From: an uncultured Gemmatimonadales bacterium
Lineage (GTDB): Bacteria; Gemmatimonadota; Gemmatimonadetes; Gemmatimonadales; GWC2-71-9
NCBI GenBank assembly: GCA_963844035.1
Contig: CAWJMT010000004.1
Span: 391,566-455,565, forward strand
DNA length: 64,000 nt
Reading direction: 5' to 3'
In this document: positions 11,955 through 20,262 of the stretch, piece by piece
Layout of the letters: the number at the start of each line of letters is the position of its first letter
Position numbering within the stretch: position 1 is the stretch's first letter
Made by a program: the position numbers and the translations under genes
The notes under the pieces: model-generated
Told to the model about the DNA's origin: nothing
The model's database searches: none
Seen by the model: the letters and a program-made list of their open reading frames with translations, nothing else

Positions 11955-14867
11955 GTGGCCTTCGACCCACTCCCAGAGCAACGTGCCGCCATCGAGGCGC
12001 CACTCGGCCCCGTCCTCGTCATCGCGGGACCGGGCGCCGGCAAGACGTACTGCCTGGTCGCACGGATCAATCATCTGATCGCAGCGGGCACCGTTTCGCC
12101 CGAGCGCATTTGCGCCGTCACGTTCACCAACCGCGCCGCCGAGGAGATCGCGGCGCGCCTGAAGCACACCCTGGGGGACCGCGCCGAGGCGATCACCCGC
12201 GGCACGATCCACGCCCTGTGCCTCGGCCTGCTGCGCGAGCACGCCGAGCTGGCGGGGTTGCGTAAGGGGTTCGGGGTGGCCGACGACCCCTATCAAAAGG
12301 TGATCCTGAAGCGGCTGGGCGTGCCCCTGAGTCATCGCGGGGGGCTGTTGAACCGGTTCAGTCGCCACCGCGCCCAGGACTACGAGCTGACGGCCGACGA
12401 CATGCGGCTGTATCGCGAGTACGCCGCGTGGCTCGCGGGTCGCAACATGGTGGACTTCGACGACCTGGTCACCAAGGCGCGCGAGCTGCTGCGCACGCAT
12501 TCGGGACTAGCCGAGCGCGTCGCCGCACGCTGGGACTATCTCCTGGTGGACGAGTTCCAGGACGTCAATCCCGTGCAGTACGACCTGCTCAAGCGCCTGG
12601 CCACGCCGCACGACAACTTTTTCGCCGTCGGCGACGACGAGCAGTCGATCTTCACGTGGACCGGGGCCGACCCGTACGTCCTCAAGCGCTTCAGCACCGA
12701 GTACGGGATCGAGCGGCCGATCGTACTCGACAAGAACTGCCGCTGCTCGCGGCAGATCTTCGAGACTGCGCGGCGCGTGCTGGCGCAAAATCCCCAATTG
12801 TTCGACAAGCAGCTCACTGCCGAGCGGGAGTCGCGGTATGAAGTCACCGCGGTCGCCTTTCAGGACGAGCAGGACGAGGCGGCGTGGATCCTGGAAGACA
12901 TCCAGAGCGACCGCGCGGCATCGGGATTGAGTTGGGGCGCCTATGCCCTGCTGTACCGCAAGCACAAGGTCGGTGACTACCTGGAAGGGCGTTTGTTAAA
13001 GGAGGGGATTCCCTGCCGCCTGGCGCGCGGCCGCTCGCTGGTCGAGGACGACGTCATCAAGTACGTCGTGGCGGCGTTACGCATCGTGCGCGACCCGGGG
13101 GACCCCGTCGCGCTCGAAGTGTTCGCGCGCTGCGTGCTCTCGGAGAACTTTCTCCAGGAAGTTCAGGGGGCGATCGGCGCCGCGGACGACTTCTTGGCGG
13201 CGGTGCGCGCGTTGGCGGGGCGCCGCCCCGCGACCGACCCCGATACGCGCAAGCTGTGGCGCTTGGTCTTCCAGGTCGAGAACTTCCACGCCTTGAGCCG
13301 CTCCCACGTCGCCCTGGCGCCGCTCGTGGACGAGATCCTGTCGCAGAGTGTCGGGCCCTACAAGAACGTCCTGGAAGAGCGCCACGACGAGCTCAGCGAT
13401 CCCGCCGATAGCCCCGAAGTCAGAGCCCTCGCCGAGCGACTTGCGCCGGCGCTCGCGGGAGAGCGCAGCGTCGCGATCTCACACCGCAGGGTGGGCTCGA
13501 GATCGCGTTGCGAGGCATGCTCGCGGCCGCCGGGTTCCGGCACGTTCGCTCGGACCTGAACGGCGATCTCGTCATTGGAGCGGGGGATGGAGGCGCGCGC
13601 GGGCTGGCGCTCACCCTGTTCAAGGCGCTCCAGCTGTTGCACGCCAAGGATCTGGACACCCCGCTCGAGCGCTACGTCACCTTTGACCTCGAGACCACGG
13701 ACAACGACGTGGCCAGCTGCGGCGTGGTCGAGATCGGCGCTGCGCGCGTGGTGCGCGGTGAGATCGTGGCCCGGTTTCATACGCTGGTGCAGCCACACCG
13801 GCCGATCTCGCCCAAGGCGAGCGCGATCCACGGCTACACCGATCGGGACCTGGCCGACGCACGCTCGTTCGCCGAGGTGTTCCCCGAATTCCGCGCGTTC
13901 GTGGGCGACGATCTCGTCATCGCGCACAACGGCCAGAAGTTCGACGTCCCGGTGCTGCGCCGTTTGGCCGCCGGTGCGGCCGGCGTGGACACCCTGGCCT
14001 TCTATGATACGCTCCCGCTAGCGCGGTCGCTTTCTAAGGACAGCGTCACGCAGGAGAACCTGGCGCATCGCTTCGGGATCGACGGCGGCAGGGCGCATCA
14101 CGCGTTGGACGATGCCGTCACCCTGGCCGGGATCTATCGCGAGCTCGAGCGCCAGCGCGGCGTGCGTGCACGTAAGGCCGTGCTCGTACACATCCTCGAT
14201 TATCTTGGGCTCGCCCTCGCGCTCGAGGGTCCTGACGACCCGAGCAGAAGCGAGCGGGGAGCGAGCGCTGCTGTTCGACATCGCGCGGGTCCGCACGCTG
14301 GGCCGCTATGGCGACGCGTTGCGGTTCTACGAAGTCGAGCGCGACCGCGCCGGCGCATCCTCCGGGCCAACACTAGACGAAGTGATCGAGCGGTTGGGTG
14401 GAGCCGCCATGATGACTCGCCTGCGCGCCGACCCGGCAGAGCGCTATCCGGCGGCGCTCGCTCGCCTGCGCGCCCTCATGGAGAGCAGCACCGAACGGAC
14501 GTTAGCCGAGAGCATCGATCGCCTGCTCGAACGCATCGCGCTCTCGACGTCTGATGGGGTCGAGGTCGCGCCCGACCGGGTCAATTTGCTCACACTGCAT
14601 TCGACCAAGGGATTGGAGTTCTCGCGCGTCTACGTCGTTGGGGTGGAGGACTATCAGATCCCGGGATTCCACGAGACCAGGGAGCAGCGGGAGACTGATA
14701 TCCAGGAGGCGCGCCGTCTCTTGTACGTCGGCATGACTCGGGCGCGGGAGCGCCTGGTGTTGACCCGCGTCGAGCGGCGGTTCGGCATGGACTCAGGAGG
14801 CAGCGCGTTTCTCGAGGAGATGGGGCTCGAGGTTTCCACAGCCGACGCTTCATACAAGGAGAGTTGA
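11955..14867 (+). CDS. UvrD/PcrA-family helicase with inserted DEDDh 3'-5' exonuclease domain (two apparent frameshifts)
   Basis: AGPGAGKT, LVDEFQD and VGDDEQSIF; FDLETT, AHN..FD and AHHALDD; LTLHSTKGLEF and EARRLLYVGMTRA. Confidence 0.88.
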
Positions 14868-15914
14868 TGAAGCGGCGGGATTTCATTCGGTCGGCGAGCA
14901 TCGTCTCGGCGGGCTTGGCGCTCGGGAAGAAGGGGCAGCTCCTCGCCCGGCCCAAGAAGGCGAGCGGGTGGCGCACCTTCGAGGTCACGACGAACATCGA
15001 GGTTCTTAGCCCCAAGGGAACGACCCGCGTGTGGGTTCCGACCGGCCTCGTCGGCGACACCCCCTATCAGCGCACGCTCGCCAACCACTTCGATGCAGGG
15101 AATGGCTCGGCGCGCCTGGTTCAGCGTACTGCGGATGCGCTAGGCCTGGTCGCCGCGGAGTTCCCCGAGGGCACGAAGCCCGCCCTGACCGTCACGAGCC
15201 GCATCGCGACCCGCGATCACGCGGTCGATCTCAACGGCGCCGCGCGGCACCCAAGGCGAGAGTCGCGCGGACCTGGAGCACTTCCTGCGCCCCACCAAGC
15301 TCATACCCACCGACGGCATCGTGAGGATGACGGCGGGCGATATCACCAGGGGTGCGCGCACCGATCTCGACAAGGCGCGCGTGATCTACGAGTGGATCAT
15401 CGACAACACCGCTCGCAATCCCAAGACGCGCGGCTGCGGACTGGGCGACATCCGGTTCATGCTCGAGACCGGGGACCTGACCGGCAAGTGCGCCGACCTG
15501 AATGCGTTGTTCGTGGGACTCGCGCGCGCGTCCGGCCTGCCGGCGCGCGATGTGTACGGCATCCGCGTCGCCAAGTCGGAGCTGGGCTACGCGAGCCTCG
15601 GACCCGCGACCGGGAAGATCACCAAGTCCCAGCACTGCCGCGCCGAGGTGCACCTCGAGCAGTACGGCTGGGTCCCCGTCGATCCCGCCGATGTCCGCAA
15701 GGTGGTGCTCGAGGAGCCGCCCGGACACCGGCCGCTCGACGACGAGCTCGTGAAGCAGGCTCGCGCGCGGCTGTTCGGGTCGTGGGAGATGAACTGGATC
15801 GCCTACAACTTCGCGCACGACGTGGAACTGCCGGGCTCCTCGGGCAAGCCGGTCGGGTTCCTGATGTATCCGCAGGCCGAACGGCGGGCGGCGACGCTGA
15901 TCCGTACGCATTAG
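14867..15914 (+). CDS. Tat-exported transglutaminase-like protein (frameshift ~15260)
   Basis: KRRDFI twin-Arg signal; GKCADLN, QHCRAEV and GWVPVDP (C-H-D triad). Confidence 0.85.
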
Positions 15915-16884: not shown

Positions 16885-17412
16885 ATGAAGAGACTTGCCA
16901 TCAGTGCCGTCGCGCTGCTCGTCGTGCTCTCGAGCGGAGCCCAGGGCCAGGACACGACCGGAGCTAAGGCTCACGGGACTCGACCGCAGCGAAGGCCCAT
17001 CAGGACTCGAGCCGAGCCCCGACCGGGGCCGCGGCTACGGCCCCAGCGGGGAATCCGCTCAGCGCCACGTACTCGGTCCAGCTTGGCGATGTCGCCGCCG
17101 GCGTCTCTCTCCGAGATGCTCAAGCTGCGGACGGACTTCGACCCCGCCATCATCAACTACGATCCGACAACTGGAACCGTAGACGTCGGGGTGTTCGGAG
17201 CACCGGCGGCCGGCAGCAAGACCGACCACGCGCGCACGACCCTGGGCAAGTACTGGGATTTCATTCAAGCCGCGCATATCGCTTATGTCCAACGGCGTTA
17301 CGGCGTGAAGCTGACGGTCAAGAACTACAAGCTCATGTACTACGACCGCAGCGTTAAGGAGGGGCCGAAGCTGATTCTGCAGTTCGTGAATGGGCAATAT
17401 TTGATACCGTAG
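16885..17412 (+). CDS. Secreted hypothetical protein
   Basis: Signal peptide MKRLAISAVALLVVLSSGAQG; protein-like C-terminal half. Confidence 0.6.
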   Translation: MKRLAISAVALLVVLSSGAQGQDTTGAKAHGTRPQRRPIRTRAEPRPGPRLRPQRGIRSAPRTRSSLAMSPPASLSEMLKLRTDFDPAIINYDPTTGTVDVGVFGAPAAGSKTDHARTTLGKYWDFIQAAHIAYVQRRYGVKLTVKNYKLMYYDRSVKEGPKLILQFVNGQYLIP

Positions 17413-17416
17413 CGGT

Positions 17417-17567
17417 TTTTCCCCGGGCTGACAGCCCGGGCTCGGCGCAAGAGTGCGCCCTGTAAGGGCGCACCCCGGGCCGAGCGCGCCCTCTTAGGGC
17501 GCGGGTTCACGAAACCCAGGATCCCACCGAAGTCATCCGTGAACCCCGGGCTTGTGCCCGGGGTCAG
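17417..17567. repeat. ~150-bp multi-hairpin REP/REPIN-like element, copy 1
   Basis: Several palindromic stems; highly similar direct copy at 18394-18544. Confidence 0.85.
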
Positions 17568-17594
17568 TAGAGGCTCCTCCGTCTTTTACCAGCC

Positions 17595-17618
17595 GGGCGC
17601 GACATGTCGCGCCCCTAC
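17595..17618 (-). repeat. GTAG-type REP-like palindrome
   Basis: Minus strand reads GTAG-GGGCGCGACATGTCGCGCCC. Confidence 0.65.
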
Positions 17619-17762
17619 ACCCGGCGTGGTTTCGTCCCCCCTCGCGTGTTTCGGGCACCTCAACCCTTCGGTATGGCTTGCATGGTCTCGACGTGGGCGG
17701 CAGCACGTATGGGATCACGCGTCTCGGCCTTCGGGATTGCCTGGGTTCGCAGCCGGAAAGGT

Positions 17763-17846
17763 GCTGGTGTGGCGAAACAGGTAAACGCGGAGACCTCACA
17801 CGTCTCTGGGCGAAAGCCCTTGTGGGTTCGAATCCCACCACCAGCA
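17763..17846 (+). tRNA. Type II tRNA with a tRNA-Leu body but a CAC (Val) anticodon; CCA not encoded
   Basis: Acceptor GCTGGTG/CACCAGC with A73; D arm GCGAAACAGGTAAACGC; anticodon stem GAGAC/GTCTC with loop CT-CAC-AC; variable arm GGGC-GAAA-GCCC; T arm GTGGG-TTCGAAT-CCCAC. Confidence 0.93.
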
Positions 17847-17863
17847 CCCTCCCCGCACCACTC

Positions 17864-17892
17864 TTGACTCGGCGATGAGCCGAGATGAAGTT
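17864..17892 (+). promoter_or_regulatory. Putative sigma70 promoter of sRNA1 (TTGACT-17 nt-GAAGTT)
   Basis: Same -35 box, spacing and GAnGTT -10 box recur at 18669-18697, although most of the spacer differs. Confidence 0.6.
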
Positions 17893-17898
17893 GTCACT

Positions 17899-17970
17899 AC
17901 GTGTGAGGTCTCCGCGTAGTGCGCCGTTCGCTACGCTGCTGAAGGCCGGAGGGGCAACCCTCCGGCTTTC
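17899..17970 (+). ncRNA. Putative sRNA antisense to the anticodon arm of the upstream tRNA (copy 1)
   Basis: 17899-17917 is the exact reverse complement of 17785-17803; followed by a GCGTAG/CTACGC hairpin and a terminator. Confidence 0.7.
17941..17970 (+). terminator. Intrinsic terminator
   Basis: GCCGGAGGG-GCAA-CCCTCCGGC-TTTC. Confidence 0.75.
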
Positions 17971-18002
17971 GCATTTCCGGGACGGAGGGAGTGCCTTCGT
18001 GA

Positions 18003-18027
18003 TACCGCGGGGCATGGCCCCGCGGTA
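18003..18027. repeat. REP-like palindrome
   Basis: TACCGCGGGGC-atg-GCCCCGCGGTA. Confidence 0.55.
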
Positions 18028-18047
18028 AACCCACCCGGACCAGGCTC

Positions 18048-18383
18048 GTCCGCGCGCACTTTGCGACCGTCAGCGAGCATCTTCCAATTGTCCGCGCGCA
18101 CGTTGTGATCGTCAGCGGGCATCTTCCGACTGTCCGTGCACACTTTGCGACCGTCAGCGAGCATCTTGCAACTGTCCGCGCACGTCTTTCCGCTGTCAGC
18201 GCACACTTTGCGACTGTCCGCAGGCACTGGGGGACTGTCCGCGCGTTCTTGGGCGTGATCCGGGGACACTTTGCAAACGACAGAGCGCACTGGGCGATTG
18301 TCCGAGCGCTTTGGGGGACGGTCCGGGGACATCGGGGGATCGTCAGCGCGTCTCTTGCAACAATCCGAGCATTCCTCGGGCCG
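18048..18383. repeat. Degenerate 21-bp tandem array, 16 units, no indels, open on both strands
   Basis: Consensus ~GTCCGCGCGCACTTTGCGACT; the first 8 units alternate GTCCG/GTCAG. Confidence 0.85.
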
Positions 18384-18393
18384 AACCGCGTCC

Positions 18394-18544
18394 TTTTCCC
18401 GGGCTCATAGCCCGGGCTCGGCGCGAATGTGCGCCCTGTAAGGGCGCACCCCAGGCCGAGCGCGCCCTCTCAGGGCGCGGGTTCACGAAACCCAAGATCC
18501 CGCAGAAGTCATCCCGTGAACCCCGGGCTTGCGCCCGGGGTCAG
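18394..18544. repeat. ~150-bp multi-hairpin REP/REPIN-like element, copy 2
   Basis: Direct copy of 17417-17567, with differences mostly in loops and linkers. Confidence 0.85.
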
Positions 18545-18621
18545 CACAGACGGCGACGACGTGACAACCCGACCGCCCGACCGCCGCCTTTGTGGTTTGA
18601 CCGCCTGACCGCCGCATCACA

Positions 18622-18651
18622 TTGTGGGTTCGAGTCCCACCACCAGCACCC
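18622..18651 (+). pseudogene. 3' fragment (T arm plus acceptor strand) of the same tRNA
   Basis: TTGTGGGTTCGAGTCCCACCACCAGCACCC matches 17820-17849 at 29 of 30 positions. Confidence 0.85.
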
Positions 18652-18668
18652 CCACTCTTAGGTGTCCA

Positions 18669-18697
18669 TTGACTCGGCCGCGGCAATTCACGATGTT
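18669..18697 (+). promoter_or_regulatory. Putative promoter of sRNA2 (TTGACT-17 nt-GATGTT)
   Basis: Same architecture as 17864-17892. Confidence 0.6.
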
Positions 18698-18703
18698 TTC
18701 ACT

Positions 18704-18773
18704 GTGTGAGATCTCTGCGTAGCCAGTTTCGCTACGCCAAGAAAGCCGGGGAGCGTAACGCTCTCCGGCTTTT
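18704..18773 (+). ncRNA. Putative anti-tRNA sRNA, diverged copy 2
   Basis: GTGTGAGATCTCTGCGT, then GCGTAGC/GCTACGC hairpin, then AAAGCCGGGGAGCG-taa-CGCTCTCCGGCTTTT terminator (possibly bidirectional). Confidence 0.65.
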
Positions 18774-18782
18774 GAGGCGTGT

Positions 18783-20262
18783 CTATGCCCGCCAACTCCG
18801 CGCAGCTCTCTCCACCAGCTTGCACCATCGCCCAGGTGTCGCGCTCGCAGTAGTCGAGCAGGTCCTGCCGCACGCGATCGCGCTCGTGCTGCGGGATCTT
18901 GTCCGCGACAAACAGGAGCCGCGCGATCTCGACGCTCGCGACGCCGGCCGTCCACGATCACGAGATCGTTGTAGGTCAGCTCGGGGACGAGGGGCGTGAG
19001 GATGTCCTTCAAGCTGAAGCTGCCCCTGAAATCGGGGTGGTAGACGCAGTTCTTCACGACCGGGATGCAGGTCGATCAGCTTCGCCTCGAGCGCCGTGAG
19101 CTCGGCGGCGAGGTCGGGCACCGCCCGTTGCAGCTCCCGGATGCGGGTCCTCTCGAATGGCGTGTACGTCGCCACCCGCTCGGCGTTGGCGGTCGCTCGC
19201 ACCATCGCTTCAGCGAGCGGCGGGCGCGCGTCCTTCGGTCCTTCGGCGAGGAACGCCGCGTGAGTGTAGGTGCCGTCGGGCTGACGTTCGTGGTAGCTGA
19301 ACTGAGCGGCGGCCTGCTGCCAGGGGGCCATGCCGGGCCAGACGGGGATCGCACGAGCGATGGTTTCGAAGTCGAGGAAGCCCAGGCGCCCCGCAAATGG
19401 CTCCAGCTCACTTCGCGAGCGTCGGCTCGACGATGACGCGGTTCTCGGCCATCGCCTTGAGCTGGCGTTTCTGCGTGAAGTTGAGCTTCTCCTTCGCCGG
19501 CAACTGGCCGATCGAGGTGATGCCGCGCTCGAGATAGGCCGACGGTCTTTTTCGGTCCCGACGCCGGCGAGGTTCCCGATATGGTCCGGCCCGTCGGGCC
19601 AGCAGCGCTTCAAGAACGGGCAGTCCCGCGGCTCGAAGCAGTGCGCGCCGATCGATACGTCGGGGAGCGGCCCGACGAGCATCGCCCGCTGCGCCGCGAT
19701 CTCGTCCGGAACCGTGGGGAGCAGCGCGACTACCGCCCCGGTCACGTCGGTGCGGGCGAAGAGGTCGCCCGTGTCGGGATGCCGGAACTCCTTGTTGAGG
19801 TGCATCACCTCCGCGCTCGTGACGTTCACGCCGCAGGCCGCGGCGACGCGGGCCTGGATGGCGACGTCCGGGATGTGCTCGTCCTTCTGTGAGGTGGATG
19901 ATTTCACCTCGGTCAGCCGGTAGCCGTCGTCCTGCTTCTCGAGCACGTCGATGGCGACGAACATGCCGTCGGCGATGAACGTCGCTTCGAAGACCGCGGG
20001 GGCGCCCGCATCAAGCGCCTTCTTCGTCGCCGCGACGCGCTCGGCGCCCGCGTTGTGCGGCAGGTCGATCAGCACGCCACCCGGATATCGCGCGCGGGCC
20101 GCTTCGCCCACCTGGCGGCCCTGGTCGAAGAGGTCCTGTAGCACCTTGTCGGGCTGGAGCTCGAGCGGCGTCGGGCTCGTGCACTTCCCACCACAATTTC
20201 TTGTGGCATTGGAGGCCGGAGGTGAAGCGGGATTTGGAGAGGCGGGGGAGGGGCTGGGTCAT
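18783..20262 (-). CDS. DUF2779-type protein: Cas4-like PD-(D/E)XK nuclease plus C-terminal RNase H-like exonuclease domain (several frameshifts)
   Basis: LSKSRF..GLQC.KKLW; IDVL...LTEVKSST; C.....C.....C; FLDFET; GSFSLK; LLDYCERDT. Confidence 0.8.

Follow-up and report, generated by a model that had tools for sequence, protein, structure and literature searches.

Transfer RNAs in which the body points to one amino acid and the anticodon to another are known from a few sources. The nematode nev-tRNAs, which are eukaryotic, place non-leucine anticodons on a leucine-type body with a long variable arm, and we know of no antisense partner of theirs. They are not mentioned in PMC7609411. In soil bacteria (Acidobacteria, Clostridia and Proteobacteria), allo-tRNAs combine a long variable arm and diverse non-cognate anticodons with an 8/4 or 9/3 fold and a serine (G73/U73) or alanine (G3:U70) identity, and a link to toxin-antitoxin systems has been proposed for them (PMC5389517). 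Likewise, the tRNAProX of Streptomyces and Kitasatospora is a proline body with the anticodons of other amino acids, in some cases with an odd position 33, and is served by a co-encoded special synthetase, ProRSx (PMC10404621, PMC11415595). Hybrid-identity tRNAs of both classes are toxic in E. coli, tRNAProX through mistranslation (PMC5389517, PMC10404621). The words 'antisense', 'complementary' and 'Gemmatimonad' occur nowhere in the text or supplement of PMC5389517, and the review PMC11415595, on tRNAProX, makes no mention of antisense.

RNA-based toxin-antitoxin systems are the second point of reference. In type I systems, a protein toxin is countered by an antitoxin encoded on the opposite strand (PMC10767807). 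The hok/Sok and aapA/IsoA systems, which have several chromosomal copies, rely on transient 5' hairpins, long-distance pairing of the 3' end and 3' trimming, and a small antisense RNA acts on the active form (PMC6733600). Type VIII is defined by an RNA toxin and an RNA antitoxin and has two described members: CreTA, in which CreT sequesters a tRNA and CreA represses transcription through CRISPR-Cas, and SdsR-RyeA, a pair of overlapping RNAs from opposite strands (PMC10767807).

The window analysed here is a 64,000-nucleotide stretch of one contig from an uncultured Gemmatimonadales bacterium (assembly G000 below). In it, a leucine-bodied tRNA carrying a valine anticodon is followed, on the same strand, by an inverted copy of its own anticodon arm.

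The window locus and its host genome

The tRNA is intact (Rfam RF00005, 59 bits), and ARAGORN labels it tRNA-Val(CAC). By sequence it folds as a 7/5 cloverleaf with a 7-bp acceptor stem, a 3-bp Leu-type D stem and a 15-nt variable region containing a 4-bp stem; the anticodon loop reads CU-CAC-AC, with U33 and the anticodon at 17797-17799. The leucine set is complete (A73, A15:U48, G18G19, A20a, U8:A14, G18:U55, G19:C56, U54:A58 and C2:G71). The valine determinants A35, C36 and A73 are present as well, and the other features of a canonical tRNA-Val are missing: a short variable loop, G3:C70, U4:A69 and G20, the last three positions being occupied by U3:A70, G4:C69 and U20. These identity determinants are those of E. 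coli tRNAs (PMC9976931) and may not be those of Gemmatimonadota. In the host genome, Leu(TAA) and Leu(CAG) come closest among the canonical tRNAs, at 70% identity, and no canonical Val tRNA is found among the top 22 canonical matches in G000. With its cloverleaf, its leucine elements and its leucine relatives, the gene bears out the initial annotation of a leucine-identity tRNA with a valine CAC anticodon. CCA is not encoded, as in most G000 tRNAs.

A sequencing error for CAG or CAA, which had been judged unlikely from the start, is excluded: contigs from two studies keep CAC, one without any difference (possibly from the source sample) and one with a single difference at 17779, and near-identical CAC tRNAs with a GTG antisense recur in other metagenome contigs. 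The one run labelled as RNA that was compared is probably DNA and contained only relatives. The GTG that had been noticed in both downstream antisense segments is there too, the second segment fitting a slightly different anticodon stem. Cited at first just as a check against error, these segments have become the main finding as a probable, separately transcribed antisense RNA.

Table 1. Features of the window locus (positions are those of the window unless a G000 contig is named)
Feature	Positions	Strand	Basis or remark
REP-like palindromic repeat, ~155 nt, upstream of unit 1	17418..17572	+	second copy (18394-18549) precedes unit 2
Predicted -10 element CATGGT of the leader-tRNA promoter	17681..17686	+	A and T are invariant columns in the 20-member alignment
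5' leader, ~70 nt, imperfect antisense to tRNA 5' acceptor strand, D arm and anticodon arm	17693..17762	+	start inferred
tRNA, leucine body, Val anticodon CAC; predicted toxin	17763..17846	+	
Predicted sigma70-type antisense promoter, TTGACT-17 nt-GAAGTT	17864..17892	+	family motif conservation
Predicted antisense RNA (antitoxin), ~78 nt	17899..17976	+	inverted repeat, fold (z -4.33), family covariation
REP-like palindrome	18006..18040; G000 C4:390240, C4:390651, C27:109062, C27:110191		
Degenerate tandem repeats between the two units, 21-nt period, ~15 periods	18048..18370	+	
Copy of tRNA 3' end (T arm, acceptor 3' strand), 30 nt	18622..18651	+	97% direct repeat of 17820-17849
Second antisense unit without intact tRNA: promoter TTGACT-17-GATGTT, antisense, hairpin, terminator-like hairpin	18669..18773	+	

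The first 19 nt of the predicted antisense RNA (17899-17917) are a perfect inverted repeat of 17785-17803, so that its 5' end is complementary to tRNA nucleotides 40-22 and presents the codon GTG at 17903-17905. In the predicted fold, a 15-nt unpaired 5' end holding this codon is followed by two hairpins, one at 17914-17936 and a terminator-like one with a weak U tract at 17941-17970. The promoter copy in the window is among the weaker ones of the family; a strict consensus scan of 17400-18900 called no promoter and did not call the terminators of the unit, and an Rfam scan of the same interval down to E 1 found only the tRNA above threshold and nothing for the antisense RNA. The second unit is recognised by a profile (E 7.3e-12) and a covariance model (E 9.7e-15), and the 30-nt copy in front of it reads as the remnant of a second tRNA gene. 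Relatives of the 155-nt repeat also lie elsewhere in G000. The second unit is adjoined by a DUF2779 gene (18786-20144, minus strand), apparently frameshifted near its end; DUF2779 also flanks another unit, L205.

The host genome does not need this tRNA. Canonical Leu tRNAs (CAA, TAG, GAG, TAA, CAG) and canonical short-arm Val tRNAs (TAC, CAC, GAC) form complete sets in G000, which has one LeuRS above the family cut-off, at C36:89755-92142, and three further Leu-body genes, two CAC and one TGC. An RpoB alignment with 25 relatives places GTG on Val in 39/39 conserved columns and GCG on Ala in 20/20, which, by this one protein, indicates a standard code. The codons GCG, GCC, GTG, GAG and GAC (62, 47, 44, 42 and 39 per 1000) are among the most used. 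Farther along, the GC content of the contig drops abruptly from ~67% to ~27% at ~21750 and stays low to the contig end (~21750-64000), the first ORFs past the switch encoding NAPRTase, GH130 and Hsp20; this is probably a chimeric join to other, possibly archaeal, DNA. The tRNA/antisense unit lies in the host-like part, 3.9 kb upstream of the join, and recurs on another contig. Elsewhere in the window, genes that appear split across frames at 11955-14867 (a UvrD-like helicase/exonuclease) and 14864-15914 suggest assembly indel errors, and a tRNA-Glu(TTC) at C22:5514-5589 of G000, unlike the other Glu tRNAs of that genome, possibly sits on a contaminating contig.

A family in which anticodon and antisense change together

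The window tRNA belongs to a family: at least 104 distinct Gemmatimonadota Leu-body tRNAs with non-leucine anticodons came out of searches that covered relatives, GTDB genomes and the phylum, family size and range being lower bounds drawn from the matches listed. Among those with at least 110 nt downstream, 92 of the 102 listed carry an antisense directed at the anticodon arm of the tRNA itself; the exact codon matching the anticodon stands in 91 of the 92 antisense stretches, against a permutation mean of 19 and maximum of 34; since the antisense score includes the anticodon, the match is partly conditioned on selection, and the counts run over related genomes and are hence not independent. 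Among the ten listed tRNAs that have no antisense are broken genes, longer-bodied types and tRNAs with Pro, Ser or Ile anticodons. None of the 22 canonical Leu tRNAs has a downstream antisense. Of 62 look-alikes from other phyla, 3 reach the antisense score, two of them with the matching codon (possibly misbinned), and viral contigs gave 44 pattern matches and 32 parsed non-leucine tRNAs, with an antisense in 0/32. A replicate on new metagenome loci, run with unchanged program code and with a search pattern that forced C36, found the antisense in 103 of the 108 matches listed and the matching codon in 102 of these 103.

At least 12 kinds of anticodon, mostly for Ala, Val, Asp and Glu, are represented in the 93 matched units among the matches listed: CGC in 32, CAC in 22, GGC in 14, GAC in 7, GTC in 5, CTC in 4, AGC in 3, GCC in 2, and GGT, TTC, GCG and TGC in one each. 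The antisense is specific to its neighbour, with a score of 17.0 for its own tRNA, 8.0 for members with a different anticodon and 9.2 for members with the same anticodon. In G000, every antisense binds its own tRNA best. The duplex of the first window antisense with its own tRNA is predicted at -39.8 kcal/mol, against -17.0 kcal/mol with canonical Val(CAC), and that of the second antisense (18702-18720, GTG) with the window tRNA reaches -28.4 kcal/mol.

In an alignment of 20 members, the helix between tRNA and trailer is 97.2% paired (31-50% in slid controls), with changes on both sides in 12 of its 18 pairs, including anticodon positions 34 and 35. The cloverleaf is 99.2% paired in the same members, again with compensatory changes. 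As both are kept with compensatory changes, both folds are under selection. At the level of sequence, anticodon and antisense are shown to change together, each copy with a specificity of its own.

The family is patchy and multicopy: matches occur in 30 of 401 genomes, with up to 6 in each, and are patchy even within a genus. Anticodons switch rapidly among near-identical bodies, and a tree built with masked anticodons from 46 family members and 22 Leu tRNAs is poorly resolved. C36 is present in 53 of the 56 matches of the 401-genome search; anticodons with a purine at 36 and a base other than A at 35 were found in only 5 of the 401 genomes, and of those only GCG (Arg) has an antisense (the anticodon searches ran over anticodons other than those of Phe). 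In two units, L237 (G101:C10) and L385, anticodon and antisense are off by one base (GGT vs GCC; CTC vs GGG), and these are possibly snapshots of specificity switching.

Two further groups of tRNAs with a Leu-type D arm came up in the searches. One consists of 97-102 nt tRNAs in which a very long variable arm goes with Ala, Gly, Asp, Val or Ser anticodons (L078, L079, L088, L091, L092, L106, L165, L180, L182, L189 and others) from Gamma- and Alphaproteobacteria, Chloroflexota, Acidimicrobiia and Cyanobacteria, with no adjacent antisense and some tandem pairs. The other consists of 97-100 nt phage tRNAs with a long variable arm, G73 and the Asn anticodon GTT (L032-L069, many IMG/VR contigs), which recur in more than 20 viral contigs.

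A vehicle was sought in the neighbourhood and in databases. Among the 140 nearest ORFs, scanned out of 203 predicted flanking ones, kinases, TPR proteins and peptidases recur (raw counts without a background set), and there are single RelE, PIN and Phd and two transposase matches. The same 140 ORFs contain no integrase or recurring mobility gene and no recurring synthetase (one ArgRS), and neither they nor the alignment revealed a conserved protein partner of the ~300-nt unit. BLAST against plasmids and phages gave no match to the unit. That no vehicle or mobile-element context was found counts against an addiction module. Of the 7 copies of a REP-like palindrome in G000, 5 lie within 1.5 kb of antisense units; the palindrome occurs in only 3 of the 78 family loci among the matches listed and was rejected as a general vehicle.

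Predicted antisense RNA, leader and competing folds

Between tRNA and antisense lies a motif, TTG(A/C)-17-TAnnnT, that resembles the motif upstream of canonical Leu tRNAs in the same genomes. By a weight matrix set by hand, 92 of 93 members (among the matches listed) and 100 of 103 in the replicate score above the 95th percentile of shuffles; none of 22 canonical Leu trailers exceeds the shuffle level. The -10 box mostly ends 10-11 nt before the antisense codon. Watson-Crick pairing rises from 0.23 through 0.83 to 0.98 at positions 6, 7 and 8 after the box (from 0.20 to 0.87 in the replicate), and a sigma70 transcript is expected to start about 7 nt after the -10 box, where the pairing begins. 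Among the matches listed, position 6 is a pyrimidine in 76/88 and position 7 a purine in 77/88, the latter being partly dictated by the pairing with the tRNA. The antisense is probably a separate gene with its own transcript, whose 5' end is predicted to be only about half unpaired over the family.

Antisense units also occur by themselves. G000 has 7 of them for 4 intact Leu-body tRNAs: four lie behind these tRNAs, one behind the 30-nt remnant and two without a tRNA. The last two aim at GTC and CGC anticodons, and no Leu-body gene with either anticodon was found in the 84%-complete assembly. Of 30 pattern-positive genomes, 27 contain units according to a covariance model, and so do 8 of 50 pattern-negative ones. 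In 40 regions around unlinked matches, excluding a few weak ones and earlier loci, 43 further antisense matches have no tRNA upstream (23), a partial one (9, some of which may be complete divergent genes), a full one missed by the pattern (10) or a contig edge (1); some of the orphans in metagenome assemblies may result from misassembly. In these assemblies, loss is shown to be asymmetric, with the antisense often alone and the tRNA rarely so.

Upstream of the tRNA, a conserved leader of ~70-80 nt follows a -10-like element in the alignment. RNAalifold pairs it with the D arm and the 5' acceptor strand, with compensatory changes; these pairs are 92.6% kept, which 0 of 500 shuffles equalled and slid controls (30-52%) did not approach, the structure being drawn from the same alignment. 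The window sequence folds likewise, the leader pairing with the D arm at a z of -0.48 that is weak alone. Tracking of the anticodon by the leader is looser, at 86.8% paired in the alignment from which the structure was itself drawn, and an automated test of leader-anticodon matching gave 4/34 against 3.9 expected.

The predicted ensembles differ sharply with context. Among the matches listed, the anticodon stem has a probability above 0.5 in 54 of 92 tRNAs folded alone and in 0 of 92 folded with their trailer; Leu controls folded with their flanks retain it in 14 of 22. With the leader in front of the tRNA, the stem still forms in 29 of the 92 listed folds, as expected of a transient leader structure. 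In these models, the trailer helix and the cloverleaf are mutually exclusive, and the leader is a second lock on the tRNA.

Charging, proposed mechanism and comparison with known systems

Leucine identity is retained over the family. Among the 93 listed members, A73 is found in 89, A15:U48 in 88 and C2:G71 in 89, and the elements of the leucine set in 85-93 each, G18G19, A20a and U8:A14 being partly forced by the search pattern. U33 is near-universal in tRNAs; here it is replaced by C33 in 27/93 members and in 25/103 of the replicate (among the matches listed), which may weaken or abolish decoding. U4:A69 is absent from all 29 listed members with Val anticodons, which keep their antisense like other members, and G3:U70 from all 93, including the 50 with Ala anticodons (1/103 in the replicate). 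AlaRS, AspRS and GlyRS need G3:U70, G73 and U73, respectively (PMC9976931). With Ala anticodons in 50 of the 93 members listed and G3:U70 in none, only leucine charging is predicted for most members, which narrows the suggestion of dual charging made in the initial annotation. The window copy, having A35, C36 and A73, may be partly or wholly valylated by ValRS. Leucylation and mistranslation by the Leu-body tRNAs are likely on these identity elements. The choice of anticodons would fit a toxin, given C36 in 53/56, target codons among the most used and bodies that miss the determinants of AlaRS, AspRS and GlyRS.

We regard it as fairly probable that a Leu-body tRNA and its antisense form a toxin-antitoxin module made of RNA alone, with leucine mistranslation as what would make the tRNA a toxin. 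The leader-tRNA-trailer precursor would be born inactive, the leader holding the D arm and the 5' acceptor strand during transcription and the trailer next pairing with the anticodon arm, in a folding order proposed from a pairing potential seen in covariation. From an internal promoter behind the tRNA, a separate RNA of ~78 nt would be made; its unpaired 5' end, beginning opposite nucleotide 40 of the tRNA, could invade the anticodon loop in trans, promoter and start being placed by conservation. By analogy with type I systems, slow 3' trimming would free a foldable tRNA for maturation by RNase P and the CCA enzyme, and under E. coli identity rules the single housekeeping LeuRS would charge it. 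Decay of the antisense after gene loss or transcription shut-off (stress, phage) would free the tRNA, and leucine would then enter very common codons (GUG here; GCG, GCC, GAC and GAG in relatives), presumably causing arrest or death. In its wider form, to which we lean with just over even confidence, this would be a selfish all-RNA module of ~300 nt and a new class: a code-corrupting tRNA toxin, held by an anticodon-loop antisense, that diversifies in lock step with it into several specificities per genome and possibly serves abortive-infection defence when phages shut off transcription.

The same anatomy would also suit a regulated, beneficial mistranslation, in which leucine at GNN codons is a stress device of the host that the antisense switches off. 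Ala-to-Leu and Val-to-Leu changes, which are comparatively mild, dominate, no mobile-element context is seen, and decoding could be damped by the C33 that about a quarter of members carry, as described for G33 (PMC11415595); in addition, proline mistranslation by tRNAProX raised carbenicillin tolerance (PMC10404621). This explanation is nonetheless unlikely, as the patchiness even within a genus, the variable copy number, the rapid anticodon switching and the many leftover antisense units fit a selfish module better. Toxicity or regulation without mistranslation is a distinctly doubtful alternative. An uncharged or poorly decoding tRNA would block the A site, trigger the stringent response or titrate LeuRS, ValRS or EF-Tu, and the antisense would still be its antidote; the 27 C33 members suit this, as do the allo-tRNAs that kill E. 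coli with no amino acid inserted (PMC5389517). Against it stand the conservation of A73 and of every leucine tertiary determinant tested, a cloverleaf preserved through compensatory changes, and anticodons that favour abundant codons whose synthetases need determinants missing from the body.

Could the antisense be just a part of the precursor, a folding switch for maturation with no separate small RNA? The trailer abolishes the cloverleaf in 92/92 listed folds, as such a switch would; but the -35/-10 motif is conserved at a fixed spacing, the pairing begins exactly at the expected start, and units with promoter and terminator persist without a tRNA, which makes this account very improbable. 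The reverse polarity, in which the small RNA is a toxin that, like CreT, sequesters host tRNAs by the codon exposed in its predicted single-stranded 5' end and the tRNA-like gene a decoy antitoxin, is barely plausible: the small RNA is often alone and the tRNA rarely, and its predicted duplex with the partner tRNA is much stronger than the one with canonical Val(CAC). Next to no credence is due to codon reassignment, to a pseudogene or sequencing artefact, or to the gene being an ordinary extra tRNA for Val, despite A35, C36 and A73 in the window copy and the chimeric join 3.9 kb downstream, given the RpoB columns (39/39 Val for GTG, 20/20 Ala for GCG), the complete canonical Val and Leu sets, a single body shared by at least 12 anticodons and the independent contigs that confirm the sequence.

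On sequence evidence, the covarying tRNA-antisense architecture is real even if non-toxic, and it is undescribed in the literature searched, in which, with few subscription papers covered, no published report of a tRNA toxin or of a bacterial sRNA on a tRNA anticodon loop was found. If the toxin-antitoxin reading is true, this would be the first tRNA found there as the toxin of such a system, and a bacterial small RNA would regulate a tRNA by pairing with its anticodon loop. It would offer a testable reason for mismatched-identity tRNAs such as allo-tRNAs and tRNAProX, whose native role is reported as unknown, show a safe way of keeping intermediates of genetic-code change, and provide naturally occurring orthogonal tRNA/antisense pairs that could serve biocontainment or a mistranslation that can be switched. 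Anticodon-based annotation labels such genes as ordinary Val, Ala, Asp or Glu tRNAs.

Compared with the described mismatched tRNAs, the family shares the long variable arm, the diverse non-cognate anticodons and the soil-bacterial setting of allo-tRNAs, which are known from other phyla, but membership was rejected on its 7/5 fold, A73 in 89/93 and G3:U70 in 0/93 of the members listed (PMC5389517). With tRNAProX it has in common a one-amino-acid body under the anticodons of others and, in some members, an odd position 33; it was likewise rejected, as the body is that of leucine, no synthetase recurs in the 140 nearest ORFs, G000 has one housekeeping LeuRS above the cut-off, and the tRNA has a dedicated antisense partner (PMC10404621, PMC11415595).

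Among toxin-antitoxin systems, the predicted logic of the Leu-body unit is that of hok/Sok and aapA/IsoA, from the transient 5' structure, the 3' long-distance pairing and the 3' trimming to the small antisense RNA on the active form and the several chromosomal copies (PMC6733600). By definition, however, type I was rejected: the unit has no toxin ORF, what the antisense pairs with is a tRNA, and the two lie on one strand as inverted copies (PMC10767807). The likeness to type VIII is that both parts would be RNA, with translation as the predicted target. The tRNA sequestration and CRISPR-Cas repression of CreTA have no counterpart in the unit, its same-strand inverted copy differs from the overlapping opposite-strand RNAs of SdsR-RyeA, and neither of these two, by their descriptions, has a tRNA toxin or an anticodon-arm antisense (PMC10767807). 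The Leu-body unit would thus fit the broad definition of type VIII while sharing the mechanism of neither CreTA nor SdsR-RyeA.
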